From a virus (taxonomy: Duplodnaviria > Heunggongvirae > Uroviricota > Caudoviricetes), in the IMG/VR virus record IMGVR_UViG_2737471839_000017, positions 1-26,854 of that record: a stretch of 26,854 bases of DNA; one strand, 5' to 3'. Made by a program: the position numbers and the translations under genes. Position 1 is the stretch's first letter, and each line of letters begins with the position of its first letter. Shown one piece after another: positions 9,390 through 26,854 of the stretch. The notes beneath the pieces are model-generated. The model did not search any database. It saw only the letters and a program-made list of their open reading frames with translations, and was not told where the DNA came from.

Positions 9390-9686
9390 TCACTCCTGTT
9401 CACTGGCCTCTTTGGCCATCTTCAAATACTGTTCAGGGCAATGCGCCATAACGCGCTGAAACAGTTCCAGCGCCAGATTGCGTTGCCCCTCATTAAATGC
9501 CATTGCCATAGCGTCCATCGGTGAGATAGCGGAAAACACCCGGCCTTTCTCCAGCACAGACCAGACAACGCGACGCCCCTGTTCACTGCTCATGACAAAG
9601 CGAATGTCATCAATTTCACGCTGTGCCATGTCACGTTGCTTACGGGCGTTTTCTTCTTTCAGTTGATCATCTTCGTAATCTGTCAT
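9390..9686 (-). CDS. Hypothetical protein (98 aa) between portal and scaffold
   Basis: ATGA coupling to the portal stop; charged helical sequence. Confidence 0.45.
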   Translation of the reverse strand: MTDYEDDQLKEENARKQRDMAQREIDDIRFVMSSEQGRRVVWSVLEKGRVFSAISPMDAMAMAFNEGQRNLALELFQRVMAHCPEQYLKMAKEASEQE

Positions 9687-11362
9687 TGTGATTGCCCACC
9701 CTGACCACTAACTGCATTCGCCATAGCTGACAAAACACTCGGATCCGAAGTTTTAGCTTCGCTTAGCGTCTTGGCACCCTGTGCCGCCGCCATCCCCATC
9801 GCCATCATTTGTTGCTGCTGTTGTTGCTGTGCCCGTTGCTGGCGAGCCTGCTCAACCTGTTCCTGCGGAACAATGACGGTTGGAGACACTCCGGACATAT
9901 CAGCGAATGCATCGATCGCCTGATCAACGTTGAGTTTGTCGAGAGCTTCTGGTTTCGCTTGCGCAAGTTGACCAATGAAGTTAACCGTGGACGCCAGACT
10001 GGACAGGCCGATAGACTTCTGCGCCTGAGCCATGACAGAAATGTATTCGACCTTCAGGGGCATACCTTCCATCGCGTCAGGCGGTGGCGGCAGCATGTTT
10101 TTACGCACCATCATCGAGAAAGCGCGGTCAATGAGAGGATTAAGACATTCGTCGTTCAGACGCTCCAGAACCGGCCCCAACATCAGAAGTTTTTCTTCTT
10201 TCATTTCGATCACTGCTTCAACAGGCATCGAGCGGGTATTGATGTTCTGCAACATCATGAACAGATCGACAAAGTAGGCGCTGTTAATGATTTGGCGAGT
10301 GTCCTGAATGTCTGCTACCAGATCTGCTGTACTGGGGTTAACCAGATAAGCAGGCCTGAAACCATCCTGACCAGTAATCTGATCGATATACGTGATGTCG
10401 CCAGGAAGAAGGGATGCGCGCTGATTCTTGAGGGAAGTCGGAGCAACCATCGGCGGATTGGTGGCTTTATCAATCAACTGTGACTTACGCTTCTGGAGAA
10501 GCTGCAATGCCTTAACAGGTCCAAGCGCCAGCATACCCGGGCATGATGATCCATAAACATCTTCGCCGTTAACTTCCCAGCGCGGAGCCATAATTGGAAA
10601 CTCATCGAATCCGGACTCACGCAACAACTTGTCGTTATCGCCGCCAACCTCGTAATAAACCGATTTGAATGGCTTGTTCTTGCTATCCAACTTCGATGTA
10701 TCGCGGTCAATGTTCGGGTAAACCGAATGCATCACTTCAATCCACTTCTCGTAGGTGCCTCTTTCCCACATGCTTTTTACGGATTCGCTGACGTTATTTA
10801 GCCCGAACTCCTGAACAAGCTGACGAACAGTCATAGAGAACTTGCGAAAACAGGTGTCAACACTGCCACGAGGTGAGTTAGCCAGGTAGTAACTGCCTAT
10901 CGGGAATGGCATTGTGCGAATGATGTCCTCATCATCCTCTAGTACCGCCATTGCACCGGTGCTGTATGTGCCGAGGCTTCCGTATAACTGCGGCAGCGAC
11001 TGATAGAGATTCGACTTATTGAACATATCGTTCATGCGGTTCTGCACCGCCTCAAGCCACAACTTAACAGGGCCATAATCCATCATTTCAGGATCTGGCG
11101 TAGCCAGGCGAAACCACGGACGGGCGGGGCTTGTGATGCCAGACATCATGCCGCTGGCGAGAGTGCGCGCCGCCATAGTCCCGGTCGAATCAATAATGCG
11201 TGTATTGCGTCGATCGTTACGGTTGACCTCAGAAGTCAGAAAGCGGGAACCACGCGGGTTGATGTAATCACTCAACTCGCGCCAGTGCGGTTCGAACGAC
11301 TGACGCTCGCTTTCAAGTTGTGCGAACTGTTTGTTCAATCGCTCTTTAGTTGTTTCCGCCAT
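9683..11362 (-). CDS. Portal / head-to-tail connector protein (559 aa)
   Basis: Size; C-terminal Gln/Ala/Met-rich tail (QQQQQQQMMAMGMAAAQGA) resembling the T7 gp8 C-terminus from memory; RBS GGAG; sits between terminase and scaffold. Confidence 0.75.
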   Translation of the reverse strand: MAETTKERLNKQFAQLESERQSFEPHWRELSDYINPRGSRFLTSEVNRNDRRNTRIIDSTGTMAARTLASGMMSGITSPARPWFRLATPDPEMMDYGPVKLWLEAVQNRMNDMFNKSNLYQSLPQLYGSLGTYSTGAMAVLEDDEDIIRTMPFPIGSYYLANSPRGSVDTCFRKFSMTVRQLVQEFGLNNVSESVKSMWERGTYEKWIEVMHSVYPNIDRDTSKLDSKNKPFKSVYYEVGGDNDKLLRESGFDEFPIMAPRWEVNGEDVYGSSCPGMLALGPVKALQLLQKRKSQLIDKATNPPMVAPTSLKNQRASLLPGDITYIDQITGQDGFRPAYLVNPSTADLVADIQDTRQIINSAYFVDLFMMLQNINTRSMPVEAVIEMKEEKLLMLGPVLERLNDECLNPLIDRAFSMMVRKNMLPPPPDAMEGMPLKVEYISVMAQAQKSIGLSSLASTVNFIGQLAQAKPEALDKLNVDQAIDAFADMSGVSPTVIVPQEQVEQARQQRAQQQQQQQMMAMGMAAAQGAKTLSEAKTSDPSVLSAMANAVSGQGGQSQ

Positions 11363-11376
11363 TTCAATGACTCCGG

Positions 11377-11583
11377 TTACTGACCAAGCAGCGTTTTACC
11401 GCTGGTATTAGCGGTTGATGTGTCGCCCTGAGAACCGGTAAGCAGCGTAGAACTACGACCAGCAGCAGCGCGACGGCGACGTGTTTCTTCGTCGCGGGCA
11501 TCAACAACGGCGGCATCCTGCTCCTGTGGTGCTGCCTGAACTTCTGGTGTTGCAGGCACTGATGGTGAGCTACCCATGCACAT
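11377..11583 (-). CDS. Small acidic Ala-rich protein (68 aa), first gene of the head operon
   Basis: ORF with GGAG RBS; the overlapping 11364-11603 frame is judged less likely. Confidence 0.3.
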   Translation of the reverse strand: MCMGSSPSVPATPEVQAAPQEQDAAVVDARDEETRRRRAAAGRSSTLLTGSQGDTSTANTSGKTLLGQ

Positions 11584-11651
11584 ATCAATGACTCCGTACG
11601 CAATTAAATTATTACCAATTTAACCACATATGATTTATTTATCGTAGATAG

Positions 11652-11688
11652 TTGACATTTAACGCACGAATTATTACCTTTCAGGTAA
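11652..11688 (+). promoter_or_regulatory. Candidate promoter (TTGACA at 11652-11657) with overlapping operator palindrome TTACCTTTCAGGTAA (11674-11688)
   Basis: Perfect -35 hexamer; weak -10 (TACCTT); operator-family site lies over the -10/+1 region. Confidence 0.3.
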
Positions 11689-12010
11689 CTAAAGAGTTCA
11701 TTCCGGTTACTAACCTGACTGGCTTGTCGTTAAATTGAACAGGTGGAGTGAGCTTTTATTTTGAGCAGTACGGCGTATGGCACATGCGCCGATAGCGGTC
11801 TGGATACGTTTAAGGGGCACCCTCCCTTGCTCGGGCAAACGAACCAGGTAGCCGGAATGTGCAAGTCGAGCGGTTTTATTCCGCGCACGGGGATTCACCA
11901 TCCCGGCGATTCGGTGTGACGCCTCGGAAGAGACGAGGGTGCAACGATGAGAGCATTTATGGAGCCGCGACAAAGTGTGGCGCCTTAACAGGCTAAGTGC
12001 TCTCAGCGTT

Positions 12011-12087
12011 GTGGCATTAGCTCAGTTGGACAGAGCAACCGCCTTCTAAGCGGTTGGTCGCAGGTTCGAATCCTGCATGCCACGCCA
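12011..12087 (+). tRNA. tRNA-Arg (anticodon UCU), 77 nt including CCA
   Basis: Hand-folded cloverleaf: acceptor GTGGCAT/ATGCCAC, D stem GCTC/GAGC, anticodon stem ACCGC/GCGGT with loop CTTCTAA, T stem GCAGG/CCTGC with TTCGAAT loop, CCA end. Confidence 0.85.
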
Positions 12088-12130
12088 GAATCACGCCTAA
12101 GGACCGTGATGCCAGAAGTTCCAGGGGCTT

Positions 12131-12173
12131 GGCGGTGATGGTTTCCCTTGAAGGACTATCACCGCCCTTTTTA
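12131..12173 (+). terminator. Intrinsic terminator downstream of the tRNA
   Basis: 9-bp stem GGCGGTGAT / ATCACCGCC with an 18-nt loop, followed by CTTTTT. Confidence 0.55.
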
Positions 12174-12250
12174 CAGCAGGACGCCATTGCGATGGCTTCA
12201 TGCTGTAAACCAGTACAGCCACGGAAGGCATAACTCATTGCTTCCAGTTC

Positions 12251-12274
12251 GCCCGGTTCGCCGGGCATTTTTTT
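12251..12274 (+). terminator. Second intrinsic terminator/attenuator immediately upstream of the 12286 ORF
   Basis: GCCCGG-ttcg-CCGGGC hairpin followed by ATTTTTTT; the T-run abuts the RBS AAGGTGAG. Confidence 0.5.
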
Positions 12275-12285
12275 AAGGTGAGATT

Positions 12286-12657
12286 ATGAACGACAAGCAA
12301 ATCGAAAAAGAAATCGTTGAGAAAGGCAAAACGGCACCGCGCGTTACGCCAGACCATATCGAAGGCATTATTGCTCAGGAGGCATATTTCACAGCAGAAG
12401 ATGGTGCCTTTGGCAAAGCCATAAAAGCGAAACATACTGGCGGAGAGGTAAACTACCAGCCGCACGAATCACTTTCTCTGCTGACGTTCTGCGTCCTGGT
12501 GCTGCGCAACGGCTTCACCGTCACCGGAGAGAGCGCCTGTGCAAGCCCGGAAAACTTTGATGCAGAAATTGGTCGGAAGATTGCCCGGCAGAATGCTGTA
12601 AACAAAATCTGGATGCTCGAAGGTTACTTGCTGAAGCAGAAGCTAAGCGAGCAATAA
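12286..12657 (+). CDS. Hypothetical moron protein (123 aa)
   Basis: Strong RBS AAGGTGAG 4 nt before the ATG; followed by a terminator; opposite strand to the flanking late genes. Confidence 0.6.
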   Translation: MNDKQIEKEIVEKGKTAPRVTPDHIEGIIAQEAYFTAEDGAFGKAIKAKHTGGEVNYQPHESLSLLTFCVLVLRNGFTVTGESACASPENFDAEIGRKIARQNAVNKIWMLEGYLLKQKLSEQ

Positions 12658-12677
12658 CACCGTGACATGTCACAAAC

Positions 12678-12704
12678 AGCCAGCCGATGAGCTGGCTTTG
12701 TTTT
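12678..12704. terminator. Bidirectional intrinsic terminator between the moron ORF and the terminase large subunit
   Basis: 7-bp stem AGCCAGC / GCTGGCT flanked by AAACAAA on one side and TTTGTTTT on the other. Confidence 0.5.
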
Positions 12705-12747
12705 ATCCTCACCAGAGGATATCTCCGTCATTATCCCCGCTAACGGA

Positions 12748-14223
12748 TTAAGCATAGGGATCGTAATCTGTAATGGCCTTGCCTTGCTGGTTCTGCTGCC
12801 CAGGAATTCGCAGACGCTTCGACACAGGGAAAGCAAACGTCAGCAGTAGCGCATCGCCTTTACCCGGCGAACGCCCAAGACGCTCTTTGATATCTTCCTT
12901 CGGTTCGATAACGATTTTACCGTCCACACGAACTTTGTACTCTGCCGCCGACAGGTCGTCTGCAGTTTCCTGGTCATCCAGCATGCCGCCCAGCCTCAGC
13001 CATGTCTTACATGAGTTGAACATCTCCCCACGCTTGTTAAGCATCTGCGGGTCAGTGGACGCACCGCCGAACGGAACAAGTTGCCATGTACGTCCCCAGC
13101 CATCACCGATTGACTTCAGCCCGGTTCCGTAACCGAAGTCGATGAATACTGCGTCAGCCTGGTACTGGTCTTCAAAGTCAGCGATACGCTTCGCCATAAT
13201 CAGATCGTCGGTGGTCTTGTTACCAGTCCACAGCACCTTACTGTGCAGCCCCTGCCGCAGGTATATCACCGCGTCATCAACGCCTGAATATGCCGGGTCA
13301 ACACCGATTATCACCGGAGCATGCGCCACCTGCGCAGCGGTCACCACCCGTTTCATTGCCTCATCAGTAAGACCGGTAGGGATAAACTGCAATTCAGATG
13401 CATCAGGGAATATGCCGCGCACACGGATTTTAACGAAGTCGCTGTCTTCCCCGTAGTCATCAACCCATTTCTGCAACTGCTGTTTGTTAGTGCCTTCCAC
13501 CGTCCGGCTGTCAATCTGCGCAGTTTTCCAGCGGTGTTTATATTTGCGGAAACATTCGCGAAAACGCCCGGTGTTACGTGTAGGGTTTCCGAACGCCACC
13601 CAGATAATCTCAGTGTCTTCGTCCGTAAGCGCACCCTCAGCAACTTCCCACACCAGATCCGCAATGTTCGACGCTTCATCGAATACCACGATGATGCGTT
13701 TGCGCTCGTTGTGTAGTCCGGCGAATGCCTCAGTGTTGTGCTCAGACCAGGGTATTGCGTCAGCCCGCCACCGCTTGTCGTGCCCAGGGTCATTGCTGTA
13801 CATCGCGGTAGCGGTACAGGTAAACCAGTCTTTCGTGATAGCAAGGTTCGACCACTTGATAATTTCCGGCCAGGTCTTCGTTCGTAGCTGGTTGTCGGTG
13901 TTGGCGGTCACCACGACCTTACAATCCTCGCAAGTGGACATGCCCCAGTTGATCAGCATTGAGATGAATGCGGATTTACCAATACCGTGACCAGAAGCGC
14001 GTGCCAGCATAAGCGGCTGATAGCGCGTCTCTGGATTCTGCAGGTGATCACGTATCTCTCGGAACGCATCAGCCTGCCACTGACGTGGACCGGTGGCATG
14101 TGCCAGTTCAGTCCCCTCTTCCCCCCACGGGAACGCATAGAGGGCATAGCCAAGCGGATCGTGAGTGAACCCTGCAATATCCTCGATCAACTGCTCTTCA
14201 GGAGATAACGCTGTATCTGTCAC
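12748..14223 (-). CDS. Terminase large subunit (491 aa)
   Basis: Walker A-like ARASGHGIGKS; C-terminal nuclease-type acidic motifs (VIIGVDPAYSG, FIDFGYG); GTG start overlapping the small-subunit stop (GTGA). Confidence 0.85.
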   Translation of the reverse strand: MTDTALSPEEQLIEDIAGFTHDPLGYALYAFPWGEEGTELAHATGPRQWQADAFREIRDHLQNPETRYQPLMLARASGHGIGKSAFISMLINWGMSTCEDCKVVVTANTDNQLRTKTWPEIIKWSNLAITKDWFTCTATAMYSNDPGHDKRWRADAIPWSEHNTEAFAGLHNERKRIIVVFDEASNIADLVWEVAEGALTDEDTEIIWVAFGNPTRNTGRFRECFRKYKHRWKTAQIDSRTVEGTNKQQLQKWVDDYGEDSDFVKIRVRGIFPDASELQFIPTGLTDEAMKRVVTAAQVAHAPVIIGVDPAYSGVDDAVIYLRQGLHSKVLWTGNKTTDDLIMAKRIADFEDQYQADAVFIDFGYGTGLKSIGDGWGRTWQLVPFGGASTDPQMLNKRGEMFNSCKTWLRLGGMLDDQETADDLSAAEYKVRVDGKIVIEPKEDIKERLGRSPGKGDALLLTFAFPVSKRLRIPGQQNQQGKAITDYDPYA

Positions 14224-14816
14224 TGATTACCATCCTGACGTTCTTTGAGTCGCTTCCTGGCTGCTGCTATGCGATCAGCAATTGTCACATTCACATTAAC
14301 ATCCAGACGTTCTTTGAACGCGTTGACATCAACATGCTTACCAATCAGCTCAAGGTTCTTCACCTTGTCAGGCCATTTAATTTTTTTGAGGATTGTCTCT
14401 ATCGAATCCTCGTTCATGTTCATGATGGTCGACGACAGATCAAAGCCACTAAGCGTAGTGCGCCAGATTTTCGGCCACTCGCGGATTGGCTTAAGGCTCC
14501 CATCGTCGTTGAGGATATCAATCACGTCCATCTGGTCGATCTCCACCAGGCGCATGAGAACGTAATCAGCACTGACGCGCATTCGTTTGTTGCGCTCCTC
14601 CATCAACTCGGCAATCCGTTTTTGAATGCGTTCATCGCGCATCATGACACTGGCTTTAACTGCCGCTGTATTTGGGGAAAATCCTGCGTTAATCGCTGCC
14701 TGAGTCTGGTTTTCAGGCGTTTTGATGTATGACTGGCAATAAGCCTCCTGCATTGCTGTTAGTGGCTTAAATTGCGTTGATTTGCGTTTATAGGTTTTAG
14801 GTTCAGCAGGCATCAT
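14220..14816 (-). CDS. Terminase small subunit (start probably ATG 14816 or 14813; listed ORF extends to 14894 through a terminator hairpin)
   Basis: Immediately upstream of and coupled to the large subunit; N-terminal region 'AMQEAYCQSYIKTPENQTQAAINAGFSPNTAAVKASVMM' matches the small-terminase pattern from memory. Confidence 0.65.
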   Translation of the reverse strand: MMPAEPKTYKRKSTQFKPLTAMQEAYCQSYIKTPENQTQAAINAGFSPNTAAVKASVMMRDERIQKRIAELMEERNKRMRVSADYVLMRLVEIDQMDVIDILNDDGSLKPIREWPKIWRTTLSGFDLSSTIMNMNEDSIETILKKIKWPDKVKNLELIGKHVDVNAFKERLDVNVNVTIADRIAAARKRLKERQDGNQ

Positions 14817-14856
14817 AACCACCGTGGTAATAGTTACCGTTGTGGTAATAGTACCA

Positions 14857-14885
14857 TGCAAAATAAAGCCGCCATAGTTGGCGGC
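14857..14885 (-). terminator. Intrinsic terminator upstream of the terminase genes (tR'-like candidate)
   Basis: On the minus strand GCCGCC-aactat-GGCGGC followed by TTTATTTTG. Confidence 0.5.
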
Positions 14886-14934
14886 AGTATTCAAAACCCA
14901 TCAAATTCATCATGCATAATCTACTCGTGACATG

Positions 14935-15273
14935 TCACACTATTAATTTCGTTTCATGCCAGCCTTTAGTCACCCAGCATTGCGAGTCACCATTACACGG
15001 GCATGAATTAACTGGAACTCTCTCGCCGCACTTACCGCAACGTTTTCCACTGATCGATTTTATACGCCCGTGCACGCGTGCATCATCCTGGCGGATCAGT
15101 AACGCAATATACTCACCAAATTCGTAAGGCGCACGCCCTGGGCGACGCGTGGCACAGTTACGCTCCAGCATTTCAATTTCCTGAGCATCAAGCACAATCT
15201 CCAGCTTACGCACACCAGATGCAGCTTGTCTGGCTCTCTGAGCGGCTTTGCGTTCTGCTGCGGATTTAGCCAT
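14935..15273 (-). CDS. Cys-rich small protein, late-gene regulator (Q-like antiterminator) candidate; start ATG 15273 with RBS GGAGAGAAGG (alternative 15288)
   Basis: C-terminal CGKCG...CPC cluster suggests a zinc-binding domain; last gene before a terminator and the terminase genes. Function is inferred from position. Confidence 0.4.
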   Translation of the reverse strand: MAKSAAERKAAQRARQAASGVRKLEIVLDAQEIEMLERNCATRRPGRAPYEFGEYIALLIRQDDARVHGRIKSISGKRCGKCGERVPVNSCPCNGDSQCWVTKGWHETKLIV

Positions 15274-15503
15274 CAACCTTCTCTCCATGCCTGGTTTCTG
15301 GTTTTAAGTCCATTGCGCTTGGCATTTCTCTGAATCCGTTTCAGTTCTTCCCTGGACTGCTCTGGAGTTATTTCTCCTCTCATAACTCGTTCAACAAGAC
15401 TCCTTCTAACTTCCATACTGTCAGCGATAAGACCTTGTTCTTCTAGCTTCTCGATATTCACGCGCTTATCAAGGCGAGCATCCCAACTTGAGCGTCTCAT
15501 CAT
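15273..15503 (-). CDS. Hypothetical small basic protein (76 aa)
   Basis: Strong RBS AGGAGG 5-6 nt upstream; ATGA coupling downstream. Confidence 0.5.
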   Translation of the reverse strand: MMRRSSWDARLDKRVNIEKLEEQGLIADSMEVRRSLVERVMRGEITPEQSREELKRIQRNAKRNGLKTRNQAWREG

Positions 15504-16059
15504 TCATCCTCCTGCTGTAATGCTGCAACCATGGCTTTGGTTTCAGCGATTAGATTTCGTGGTAACTGGCTACCCGCTTTTAGCATGCCTATCCCAAACA
15601 CCAGCCAGCGCTGCAGCATGTCCGCATAGCCATCCGGAGTTACCGGAGAGTTGCCGGGTTCTTTATGTGCAAGCGAGGCTCACCATCTTTTGGCTCAGGC
15701 CACTGGCGCTCCATGTTGATCTTCAATTTATCTTCCATAGCAACGGTAATTTCAGCATCGCTGATGCCAGCACGGCGCTGTGCATCCCACAACAGGAACT
15801 GCATATCAGCCCACTCGCTAAGATCGTCTGGTTCGGCTGCGGCTTCCAGAGCCTCTTTTGAGAGGTGTTTCAGTGGACCAATGGGGCCAACGCAGCCAAA
15901 TGTGGAGTCAGACCATTTGGCATGCTCGTGGCGAATCTGTTCGCGTTCCAGTAATGCCAGTGCAATTCGTGCCAGTTCCATTTGTTCGCCACGAGTAAGC
16001 CCGTTATCAAGCGGATTTTTAATGAATAATTCGATACGTTCTTTGGTTATAGTGCTCAT
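15500..16059 (-). pseudogene. DUF550-like gene apparently split by a +1 frameshift: frame A 15640-16059 (139 aa) continues in another frame 15500-15679 (59 codons)
   Basis: Second frame is open from 15679 to a TGA that overlaps the next gene's ATG; RBS AAGGAG before the ATG at 16059; the shift must lie within 15640-15679. DUF550 identity is recalled, not searched. Confidence 0.4.
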
Positions 16060-16060
16060 A

Positions 16061-16696
16061 TCACTCTCCTTTGATGCGAATGCCAGCGTCAGACATCATA
16101 TGCAGATACTCAACTGCATCCTGAACCCATTGACCGCCAATCCCGTAATAGCGATGCGTAATGATGTCGATAGTTACTAACGGGTCTTGTTCGATTAACT
16201 TCCGCAGAAACTCTTCCAGGTCACCAGTGCAGTGCTTGATGACAGGAGTTTTCCCGGGATGGCGAACAACAAGAAACTGATTTCCGACTTCACGGACTTC
16301 GTTGCTTTCCAGTTCTGCAATGCGCTTCTCTGCGGCTTCCAGCTCAACACGCAGCTTCCCTACCGTTAACGCAATATCCTCGTTCTCCTGGTCGCGGGAT
16401 TTGATGTATTGCTGGTTCCTTTCCAGCTCATCCAGCAGCGCCAAGACGGTAGCCGGATTGGCTGCGGCGATGAATTCAGCATTGGCCTGCTGTTCCATTT
16501 GGAAATCTTCATAGAAACCGCTTTCAGGATGCGCTCCTTCAATTCTGCAAATGGGAAGATATCCAACAACTTCACGATGAATTAGCGCATCACCAGCATC
16601 AAATCTCTCCTCTCCATATTCGAGCGTCCACACGCCACACGTTGCTTTTTCTGCTTTTTCACGCAGTGCCTGATAGTCAATTGTCATTCTCGCCAT
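16061..16696 (-). CDS. Ead/Ea22-like family protein candidate (start 16696 or 16687)
   Basis: N-terminal 'TIDYQALREKAEKATCGVWT' and central coiled-coil region resemble Ea22-like prophage proteins from memory. Confidence 0.5.
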   Translation of the reverse strand: MARMTIDYQALREKAEKATCGVWTLEYGEERFDAGDALIHREVVGYLPICRIEGAHPESGFYEDFQMEQQANAEFIAAANPATVLALLDELERNQQYIKSRDQENEDIALTVGKLRVELEAAEKRIAELESNEVREVGNQFLVVRHPGKTPVIKHCTGDLEEFLRKLIEQDPLVTIDIITHRYYGIGGQWVQDAVEYLHMMSDAGIRIKGE

Positions 16697-17328
16697 CCTT
16701 CACAGTTGTAATCACTACAGCCTTTAAAATCATATGGGTTGTACTGCCAGGTGATTTTTCCGCAATGCGGACAATTCCAACGCACCTTCCCGCTTCGCGA
16801 CTTCTTTCTTCTGTTCTGCTCTTTCAACCAGTCAGGCATGACCAAACCTGCGCCCTGAACCATTGTTCTGCGGTTAAAGTTATTGATATTGAACGTCCGG
16901 CGCTTTGCTGAATCAGCAATGGAAAATGGCAACCAAACTATTCCTGGTTCGTTTTTGTTGGCGACGCTAAAGATGGTCGCTTTACTGAAGTCATCTGTTG
17001 GCAATCCACCGTGTTGAAGCCAGTAAACATCGTTGCCGTTCCAGCTACCTTTTTTGTAGGCCACATACGCAGTGCAATCTGGCTCAATCAGGTTTTCTGT
17101 AGGGATGTACTGGCAATCAACGTGCCACACTGCCATTGCATCCACGCTATCAGCGCAAACAGGCTGATCGATATCTCGCCCACAATTCCAGGCTTTTTGG
17201 GCTTCTTCCAGCGTGTAAACATGAGCGCGATCGATATCAGAACTGTAACCATTGCCGTTATGGCAATGGAATGAAGCGTTATTGCCCACAGTTTCACGCG
17301 AGCACATCATGTAAAAACGGTTAGTCAC
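16684..17328 (-). CDS. Cys-rich hypothetical protein with C-terminal zinc-ribbon-like motif (214 aa; GTG start with RBS AGGAGG)
   Basis: C-terminal 'WNCPHCGKITWQYNPYDFKGCSDYNCEGW'; no recognised family. Confidence 0.5.
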   Translation of the reverse strand: MTNRFYMMCSRETVGNNASFHCHNGNGYSSDIDRAHVYTLEEAQKAWNCGRDIDQPVCADSVDAMAVWHVDCQYIPTENLIEPDCTAYVAYKKGSWNGNDVYWLQHGGLPTDDFSKATIFSVANKNEPGIVWLPFSIADSAKRRTFNINNFNRRTMVQGAGLVMPDWLKEQNRRKKSRSGKVRWNCPHCGKITWQYNPYDFKGCSDYNCEGWRE

Positions 17329-25603: not shown

Positions 25604-26854
25604 TTATTCCCCCGCCATCCACTTCTCAAACTTCGACGGGGAGAACGGAATCAGATCCGTATGCTCCCCGTTAATCCAGGAATCAATCATATCGGCCCAC
25701 TGCTGCAACATGTAGGCGCGCTGTCTGGCGTATTCCGCTTTGTTATATACGGCGCGCACACCTTTCTGCTCATGTGACAGAGCCTTTTCAATCCAGTCTG
25801 AAGGATAACCAGCCTCATGCAACAACGTACTGGCTGTACGGCGCATATCGTGTACGGTGAAGCCCTGAATATGCTCACCATCTTCATTTATTATTTTCAC
25901 CGTTCTGTCGATCAGAGAGTTCAGCGCGGCATTAGATAATGGCTTCCGGAAATTGTAACGACCAGGAACCAGATATTCACTTCCACCAGCGCACATCTGC
26001 AACCCAACCAATATATCCTGTGCCTGTTTAGGCAGGTAAATAACGTGCGCCCGGCTTCCCTTCATGCGGTCTGAAGGAATTGTCCATGTCCATTTTTTAA
26101 AATCTATTTCATCCCACGTTGCATTGGTGAATTCGCCTTTACGAACCATAGTGATAAGCACCAGCTTTAAAGCCATTTTCATAGTGCCCATAGCACCAAT
26201 GGCATCCAGCGTGCGGAAGAACAGGCCAATTTCTTCTGGTGTCAGTGTTCGCTCTCGTGGTTTAAATATGGCGATAGACGAAGGTTTAATGTCAGCCGCA
26301 GGATTAAACAAACCATGACCACGGTCATTGGCGTGACGGTATACGCTGCTGATGATCTCCCTGGCCTGCACTGCTGTTGCCCGGCCACCGCGTTCGACAA
26401 TCCGGTCACACAAATCACGAACCATCGATGTGGTAATTTCAGCCATCATTTTATTGCCAAGAACCGGAAGTATGTCACGGTCGATCACCGCCTGTTTCAT
26501 TGCGCGGGTACTGTCAGCCAGGATGACGTGTTTCATATAACTGTCGGTATGTACCGCAAACGTCTCGGCACCACGAATCTTTTTGATACCGTCACGTTTA
26601 GCCGCAGCCGGTGACTGGCCTGCTTTAAGCAGCTTCTTTGCAGCAATCAGTTCTTCCCGCGCTTCTGCCAGGCTGATACCGTCACGCCCATACTGCCCGA
26701 TTACCAGTGTTTCGCGGCGACCGTTGATACGGTAGTCATAGCGAAACGAGACCGTACCTGACGTAAGCACAGCTACATACAGCCCGTCACGATCGGAGAC
26801 TTTGTATAGTTTGTCCTGCGGCTTGAGGTTTTTTAATTTTGTATCGGTAAGCAC
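25604..26854 (-). CDS. int: Tyrosine integrase, P4-like (416 aa; apparent GTG start at the last window bases, so the N-terminus may be slightly truncated)
   Basis: N-terminal 'LTDTKLKNLKPQDKLYKVSDRDGLYVAVLTSG' matches the P4-type integrase arm domain; C-terminal catalytic region contains 'HDMRRT' and 'LSHEQKGVRAVYNKAEY'. Confidence 0.85.
   Translation of the reverse strand: MLTDTKLKNLKPQDKLYKVSDRDGLYVAVLTSGTVSFRYDYRINGRRETLVIGQYGRDGISLAEAREELIAAKKLLKAGQSPAAAKRDGIKKIRGAETFAVHTDSYMKHVILADSTRAMKQAVIDRDILPVLGNKMMAEITTSMVRDLCDRIVERGGRATAVQAREIISSVYRHANDRGHGLFNPAADIKPSSIAIFKPRERTLTPEEIGLFFRTLDAIGAMGTMKMALKLVLITMVRKGEFTNATWDEIDFKKWTWTIPSDRMKGSRAHVIYLPKQAQDILVGLQMCAGGSEYLVPGRYNFRKPLSNAALNSLIDRTVKIINEDGEHIQGFTVHDMRRTASTLLHEAGYPSDWIEKALSHEQKGVRAVYNKAEYARQRAYMLQQWADMIDSWINGEHTDLIPFSPSKFEKWMAGE

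Follow-up and report, generated by a model that had tools for sequence, protein, structure and literature searches.

Why does one short palindrome stand on both sides of the terminase genes of a temperate phage? The question is raised by a stretch of viral DNA of 26,854 nucleotides (nt) (IMG/VR record IMGVR_UViG_2737471839_000017, positions 1 to 26,854; hereafter the window), which by sequence similarity is a phiV10/epsilon15-like prophage (Uetakevirus; epsilon15-like podovirus). Positions 11300–15600 match E. coli prophages, phiV10 and O157 typing phages 9 and 10 at 97–98% identity, and the block is present in 431 of 5426 complete E. coli genomes. In this block the exact 14-mer CGTGACATGTCACA occurs twice on the plus strand (12661–12674 and 14926–14939), and each copy holds the perfect 12-bp palindrome GTGACATGTCAC, of the general form GTGAC-N2-GTCAC, which we call the dyad. 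An earlier note on this DNA had suggested either a regulator-binding site (as a late promoter or antitermination site) or a boundary for module exchange. We find that the dyad is most likely a selected cis-element at which a regulator would bind, given its conservation and its linkage, across unrelated phages, to the gene of a small protein, p55. We propose, with moderate confidence, that it is the cognate double-stranded DNA operator of p55 (phrog_536 family), bound as a symmetric dimer. On this reading p55 would be a phage regulator of wide distribution, so far uncharacterised, with its site placed on the stop codon of its own gene.

The repeated palindrome and its conservation

The two copies and the features that adjoin them are as follows.

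Dyad A, 14927–14938, palindrome GTGACATGTCAC: over the TGA stop codon of p55 (14935–14937, minus strand).
Dyad B, 12662–12673, palindrome GTGACATGTCAC: 4 nt 3′ of the stop codon of the plus-strand Phage_gp49_66 gene and 4 nt before the bidirectional terminator that follows terL.
p55, 14935–15273, minus strand: the final early gene, encoding a protein of 112 amino acids (aa), the proposed dyad binder.
Intrinsic terminator between p55 and terS, 14860–14885, minus strand: GCCGCCAACTATGGCGGC, then TTTATTTT.
Terminator between the gp49_66 gene and terL, 12678–12705, plus strand: an A-run, the stem AGCCAGC/GCTGGCT and a T-run; predicted to be bidirectional.

As the earlier note had described, the copies share one orientation, bracket the genes for the small (terS) and large (terL) terminase subunits, and each have a terminator beside them: a plus-strand terminator-like stem occupies 12678–12697 and runs into TTGTTTTA, and the minus-strand stem reads from 14885 to 14868 before TTTATTTT. 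We also agree that the repeat of any generic 14-mer within 27 kb is at about chance level. Yet the window holds six perfect 12-bp palindromes, of which GTGACATGTCAC is the only one repeated, and the probability of such a repeat is, by simple arithmetic, C(6,2)/4^6, or about 0.004. Dyads with exact GTGAC-N2-GTCAC arms number two in the window, against a mean of 0.02 over 200 shuffles. The outer C and A of the 14-mer vary at site B among relatives, so that the functional unit is the 12-mer, of which we found no mention in the literature searched.

Sought at homologous positions in relatives, the motif was present in phiV10, epsilon15, Tyrion and BUCT711. Three sites can be defined: site A, on the p55 stop codon; site B, past the stop codon of an accessory gene and abutting the terminator after terL; and site C, 0–7 nt after the last structural gene and 1–2 nt before its terminator, which lies outside the window, about 17 kb on. 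Salmonella phage epsilon15, whose DNA is far more diverged, has perfect copies at 2142, 19517 and 39612, and Enterobacter phage Tyrion has the same three sites. phiV10 has a perfect palindrome after terL (2262) and another after the last structural gene (19493), together with a site A that has one mismatch and spans the ends of the record. At homologous places epsilon15, Tyrion and BUCT711 have the 12-mer unchanged in spite of divergent flanks, and the palindrome at site B is likewise kept in phiV10, epsilon15 and Tyrion between diverged flanks. Klebsiella phage BUCT711 carries a copy on the p55 stop codon, one at an operon end and two within genes, and lacks both the copy after terL and the gp49_66 gene there; judging from Tyrion and BUCT711, site B goes with the terminator of the convergent accessory gene and with that gene's 3′ end. 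For conservation and breakpoint counts we used throughout 80 close relatives, near-identical to the window; dyad A is exact in 75 of them and dyad B in 54.

Two further observations concern these genomes. The phiV10 record opens inside the palindrome, and a cos site or genome end was considered for this reason and rejected, the authors of the record having simply cut it after the stop codon of the last gene. In epsilon15 (L005), a copy with two mismatches, GTGACATGGCAT, lies at 26618–26629, where the lysis cassette ends, and overlaps the Rz spanin stop codon; it may be a decayed fourth unit-end site.

Linkage of the dyad to the p55 gene

The earlier note had named the 14935–15273 protein as a candidate binder, and the comparison across phages bears this out: the dyad travels with the p55 gene. 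A tblastn search found p55 homologues in 154 phage records of very different kinds, of which five illustrate the range.

ZF40 (myovirus), gp22: 65% identity to p55; TGTGACATGTCACA 2 nt past the stop codon, with two further perfect 14-mers.
Yersinia phage vB_YenM_56.17 (P2-like): 40% identity; TTGTGACGCGTCACAA across the stop codon.
phiKO2 (N15-like), gp45: 37% identity; CGTGACTGGTCACG across the stop codon.
Vibrio phage K233: 31% identity; the stop codon lacks a dyad, and GTGACACGTCAC occurs twice close by, once 30 nt before terS.
Aeromonas phage 85AhydR10PP: 32% identity; only a weak match at the stop codon, and a repeated variant, GTGACCGGACAC.

When one genome per species was scanned, 47 loci encoded a p55 homologue, and 29 of them had an exact-arm dyad between −15 and +40 of its stop codon, with the TGA inside GTGAC in 22; the background in windows of equal size elsewhere in the same loci was 0.003. 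Elsewhere in the 370 kb of these loci we counted 19 further dyads against about 0.35 expected, an excess of about 50-fold. In a second set, of 80 Klebsiella-type Uetakevirus loci with 71 p55 genes, 63 of the genes end in the dyad, and in five other loci it lies about 205 nt 3′ of p55 (in L292, beyond an inserted small open reading frame (ORF)). Three loci (L277, L289 and L317) have p55 2.3 kb upstream of terS, and there the dyad remains at the p55 stop codon; in L277 the terminator remains before terS, with no dyad there. A natural deletion in L306 (5063–5362) and L287 joins the first 20 or so codons of p55 to a UmuD-like gene, taking out dyad A together with the terminator before terS, and L306 lacks dyad B as well. 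The p55 ORF and the dyad on its own stop codon make up a 352-bp mosaic cassette found in temperate phages of the podo-, myo- and siphovirus types.

Extra copies of the dyad are scattered through each genome, mostly at gene 3′ ends. In ZF40 (L006; 5124 and 7621) and two other lambdoid contigs, L183 (2531 and 4754) and L185 (1190 and 3379), paired perfect 14-bp palindromes 2.1–2.5 kb apart flank the repressor/cro immunity region. The two pairs that were mapped, those of ZF40 and L183, are both intragenic, one copy lying in a leftward early gene and the other in the 3′ end of the gene at the cII/YdaT position. Sites A and B of the window are 2.27 kb apart, a similar spacing, though the likeness may be coincidental.

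The symmetry around the terminase module that the earlier note had stressed did not hold up: site A stays with p55, site B with the end of the accessory gene, and a third copy lies about 17 kb on. On this comparative evidence the terminase genes are bracketed incidentally and are not the organising module: the early genes happen to end with p55, and terL happens to be followed by the terminator of the accessory gene. The remaining features of the region are listed here.

terS, 14220–14813, minus strand: Pfam Terminase_2; context, outside the element itself.
terL, 12748–14223, minus strand: context, outside the element itself.
Phage_gp49_66 gene, 12286–12657, plus strand: convergent accessory (‘moron’) gene by Pfam; its 3′ end abuts site B.
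tRNA-Arg(TCT), 12011–12087, plus strand: within the accessory block between terL and the portal gene.
Small gene, 11377–11583, minus strand: follows the accessory block in the late order.
Portal gene, 9683–11362, minus strand: follows the 11377–11583 gene and precedes the structural genes.
Degenerate copy of the dyad, GTGCCATGTCAC, 9623–9634, plus strand: inside a Bbp19-like coding gene; one mismatch breaks the palindrome.
Mini-ORF, 14891–14917, minus strand: MHDEFDGF, then stop; the deletion scar of a 70-aa ORF.

The late genes lie on the minus strand in the order p55, terS, terL, an accessory block on the opposite strand, the 11377–11583 gene, the portal gene and the structural genes. Two more plus-strand terminator-like hairpins (12131–12166 and 12251–12266) stand in the accessory block, which late transcription must cross in the antisense direction. 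Upstream of p55 (15273–16700), genes for a 76-aa protein, a dATP/dGTP pyrophosphohydrolase and an Ead/Ea22-like protein form a different mosaic segment. The degenerate copy at 9623–9634 recurs in phiV10; it is probably non-functional, because the homologous epsilon15 gene (gp5) has no counterpart with up to two mismatches.

A proposed DNA operator and the alternatives to it

The form of the dyad points to a site on double-stranded DNA. Across dyads from phages of several genera the arms are invariant and the central 2 bp vary (AT, GC, GT/AC, CT/AG and TG), and the non-palindromic centres (AG or CT; GT or AC) occur both ways round in the same gene context among close relatives, so that the site works in either orientation. 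Invariant arms with a free centre are the pattern that would be predicted for a symmetric dimer on duplex DNA.

The protein is compatible with this role in outline. p55 falls in phrog_536, labelled ‘transcriptional regulator’; Pfam has no family for it, and its own family is small, with 193 representatives at 50% identity. In an alignment of the family the N-terminus is basic and is followed by a hydrophobic strand-like segment and two helices (consensus ...EYIxLLIRxD), with a Cys4 cluster towards the C-terminus; R8, R13, C79, C82 and C99 are invariant or nearly so. The AlphaFold2 model of the monomer (mean confidence score, pLDDT, of 65) has three long helices and two very short C-terminal ones of low confidence, and the Cys region is unstructured in it. 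A search of p55 with PADLOC gave no hit, the Q families in Pfam did not match it and NCBIfam YbfE gave E = 0.05. A ribbon-helix-helix (RHH) fold for p55, to which sub-threshold Pfam hits among family members point, is a lead.

Several results count against p55 as the partner of the dyad, or against a regulatory role of the kind proposed. In 18 of the 47 homologue loci there is no dyad at the stop codon, and L287 retains site B although its p55 gene is deleted. Among the matches listed, 88 of 120 IMG/VR stretches with the perfect 14-mer show no p55 in the stretch, many of them being expected by chance or partial. The fold is not corroborated by structure: a Foldseek search of the p55 model against the PDB returned nothing at E < 1, two profile searches of PDB sequences returned nothing credible, and RHH_5, RepB-RCR_reg and RHH_1 gave only five sub-threshold Pfam hits among 65 family members (E 0.013–0.07). 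Transcription factors do not usually have their sites at gene ends, which makes the downstream mechanism speculative. Finally, p55 is not a switch for late genes in general, since Q or Ogr is already present in ZF40 and the P2-like phages.

What a p55 operator might do is suggested by where the dyads lie. In a diverse set of 66 dyads, 46 stand at a stop codon, where random positions fall in 7% of cases, and 12 are inside ORFs; a terminator-like hairpin stands within 60 nt of 30 of 62 dyads, against 11% of random positions. The dyads are thus not placed at promoters, where an operator would be expected, but mostly on stop codons or within genes. With its sites placed within transcription units or at their ends, and not at conserved promoters, a bound p55 dimer would act on elongating RNA polymerase or on DNA architecture, not on initiation. 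It could serve as a roadblock or insulator that strengthens unit ends, or as a local modulator of read-through (antitermination) at the adjoining terminators. Bound over its own stop codon, p55 would cut short its own messenger RNA and so regulate itself, by analogy with LacI at O3. We put forward only tentatively the wider idea that the p55 family would be a new class of phage factor, a marker of where transcription units end: a zinc-containing dimer on dyads at stop codons and terminators that would gate RNA polymerase between modules (early to late, late to accessory) as a roadblock or antiterminator, would autoregulate through a truncated non-stop mRNA and, in ZF40-type phages, would clamp both early operons beside the immunity region.

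The same sites could instead act as RNA, a hairpin GUGA-CNNG-UCAC in the 3′ untranslated region being bound by the arginine-rich N-terminus of p55, much as boxB is by lambda N or HK022 Nun, with a change in termination downstream. The N-terminus, AAERKAAQRARQ, does have invariant arginines; sites B (read on the plus strand) and C lie 1–4 nt upstream of terminator hairpins; in ZF40-type phages each early operon has one copy, the two flanking the immunity region roughly like nutL and nutR; and a palindrome yields the same RNA in either direction of transcription. We nevertheless think this unlikely. The RNA hairpin of the dyad amounts to only −2.7 kcal/mol, and no separate hairpin is predicted in the context of site B; the stem never covaries, and the ‘loop’ at the centre varies freely and flips orientation. 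An extension of the stem by the flanks was tried and rejected, as the bases there show no constraint to pair. Read in the late direction, site B comes after the terminator and not before it, and no boxA-like partner was noticed in the flanks examined, which were not searched for one specifically. The stable hairpin, conserved loop, covarying stem and fixed orientation of nut/boxB sites are thus absent from the dyad.

The claim that the palindromes mark module-exchange boundaries fared better in its description than in its explanation. The palindromes are real mosaic junctions. Among the close relatives, homology to the window breaks 2–13 nt past dyad A in 27 of 80 (late-orientation coordinates 11930/11941; dyad A ends at 11928) and 0–10 nt past dyad B in 20 of 80 (14193–14203; dyad B ends at 14193); across the 80 the breakpoints cluster 0–13 nt past each copy. 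The p55 ORF with its dyad stands free as a discrete 352-bp block in 25 relatives. The gp49_66 gene is swapped for other alleles or deleted in relatives with the break at dyad B, and the same site B palindrome is adjoined by at least five different gene 3′ ends or by a clean deletion that leaves an 8-codon mini-ORF. An ORF with a 3′ palindrome also resembles an integron cassette with attC. These facts could be read to mean that the dyads are recombination junctions, linkers for cassette swaps with no regulatory role, which we consider quite improbable: no recombinase is associated with the sites, and ordinary gene boundaries break too, at the p55 start codon (15273–15276), where homology ends exactly in 78 of 80 relatives, and in the terL stop region, in 15. 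A junction role also leaves unexplained the placement on the p55 stop codon in unrelated genomes and the intragenic copies of ZF40-type phages and BUCT711. The clustered breaks are most simply explained if homologous exchange has only one shared sequence to use, a conserved functional island at a gene end; the role as a module boundary is then probably a by-product of that island.

A terminase signal (pac site), or a late promoter with GTGACA as its −35 element, is very improbable. One copy does lie about 110 nt upstream of terS, the minus strand of site A reads GTGACA, 18 nt, CATGAT in a sigma-70-like manner, and in Vibrio phage K233 a dyad stands 30 nt upstream of terS. As a pac site the dyad was rejected: there are at least three copies per genome, the dyad stays with p55 and not with terS once the two separate, and in ZF40, the Yersinia phage and phiKO2 the sites are far from the terminase genes. 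As for the late promoter, that single match is weak and is the only promoter-like one at site A; such matches in the region are at chance (4 against 4.4 expected), and the putative −10 sits in a non-conserved deletion scar that is missing from 27 of 80 relatives and from epsilon15. The scar is the mini-ORF listed above, and in 27 of 80 relatives the full 70-aa ORF (ending ...FYDEFDGL, then stop) separates dyad A from the terminator. Reading sites B and C by eye, we saw no −10 element on either strand, and no conserved promoter lies downstream of the dyad among the sites examined. What follows site A varies: the terminator (the window and epsilon15), the 70-aa ORF, a LexA-box promoter with a umuD-like gene, ninB, or a gene 20 nt off.

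Some observations on the surroundings of the sites stand apart from these questions. Tiny ORFs similar to the mini-ORF, MKYEFDAF and MKDEFDRF (each then stop), abut dyad B in gp49_66-deleted relatives and in epsilon15. In L277 (3100–3160), L292 (4950–5020) and L304 (5010–5070), as also in L104, L115 and L120, a TTGACT −35 element and a LexA box (TACTGT-N8-ACAGTA) lie 6 nt past the p55 dyad; these relatives are of the Klebsiella and Citrobacter types, and the driven gene, umuD-like in the Klebsiella type, is by its predicted promoter an SOS-controlled accessory gene between p55 and terS or ninB. Two direct copies of GTGGTAATAGT (14824–14834 and 14842–14852; ACTATTACCACAACGGTAACTATTACCAC on the minus strand) lie between the terminator and the start of terS. 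The epsilon15 record labels the homologous spot (L005, 12–27, TTACCAAAACGGTAAT) a ‘repressor’ site, and similar ‘repressor’-type sites occur before its gp3 and gp20 and beside its repressor gene; the epsilon15 ‘repressor’ form ATTACC-N4-GGTAAT was not found in the window at up to two mismatches. Each late unit may start with an operator of the GTGGTAATAGT type and end with a GTGACATGTCAC dyad.

A host-factor site is scarcely credible, for although the TGTGA/TCACA arms resemble CRP half-sites and the symmetric lac operator TGTGAGCGCTCACA of the LacI family, the spacing is N4 in every copy where CRP needs TGTGA-N6-TCACA, which led us to reject a CRP site, and the dyad goes with a phage gene in hosts as far apart as Vibrio and Escherichia; a chance repeat, given the same slight weight, is excluded by the conservation and the shuffles.

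Significance and relation to known systems

The phages concerned are common: epsilon15/phiV10-like phages are prophages of E. coli, Salmonella and Klebsiella. To our knowledge there is no account of late-gene control in them, and no Q-like or Ogr-like late regulator came to light in our analysis or in the literature, which was searched for Uetakevirus transcription and for genome features of epsilon15. The operator proposed here offers a specific protein–site pair, the 112-aa p55 and a 12-bp site with three predicted places, that recurs in ZF40-, P2- and N15-like phages. If it is borne out, the layout would be an unusual one for a regulator, with operators on its own stop codon and on gene 3′ ends and not at promoters. 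In phage engineering, for example of phiV10-based reporter phages, the dyad can also serve as a practical guide to module junctions.

Five known systems invite comparison. Like the boundary sequences of lambdoid phages and integron attC sites, the dyad is a short conserved sequence at gene ends where homology starts or stops, and an ORF with its 3′ palindrome forms a unit; unlike them, it has no linked integrase-type recombinase and is tied to one gene family across phage types. The likeness to lambda N or HK022 Nun on boxB lies in a protein that is about 110 aa long and arginine-rich at its N-terminus, and in a hairpin-capable site found in early operons (ZF40-type phages) and before terminators, but the stem of the dyad does not covary, its loop is variable, its hairpin is weak and p55 is encoded late in the early operon. 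The RHH repressors Arc, Mnt, CopG and omega are small, as is p55, which has a basic N-terminal arm and a predicted strand-helix-helix, and they bind short dyad operators; p55 differs in its sub-threshold Pfam hits, in its extra C-terminal Cys4 domain and in dyads that are not in promoters.

The gene order recalls the lambda Q/PR′/tR′ module: the regulator is the last early gene, and a DNA site directly after it is followed by a terminator and then by the late genes, beginning with terS. p55 differs from Q in that it has no Q-family similarity in Pfam and there is no conserved promoter or pause element at the dyads; a 70-aa ORF or a 2.3-kb insert can part the dyad from the terminator, the extra dyads are not at promoters, and ZF40 has a separate Q-like gene besides its p55 homologue. 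A lambda-type Q module was rejected as a candidate for want of a Q-family hit, because the promoter match is chance-level and in the scar, and because the terminator separates from the site in relatives.

LacI at O3 offers an analogy for the mechanism. There, reportedly (in work by Abo et al. of 2000), an operator at the 3′ end of lacI lets the bound repressor act as a roadblock, giving rise to non-stop mRNA and SsrA tagging. p55 is unrelated to LacI, being a 112-aa protein with a Cys4 cluster and no LacI fold, and no promoter-proximal main operator is evident. The likeness lies in the arrangement: a palindromic operator, here a 14-bp dyad with TGTGA/TCACA arms, over the 3′ end of the regulator's own gene, so placed that RNA polymerase stalled by binding at dyad A would not yet have transcribed the stop codon.

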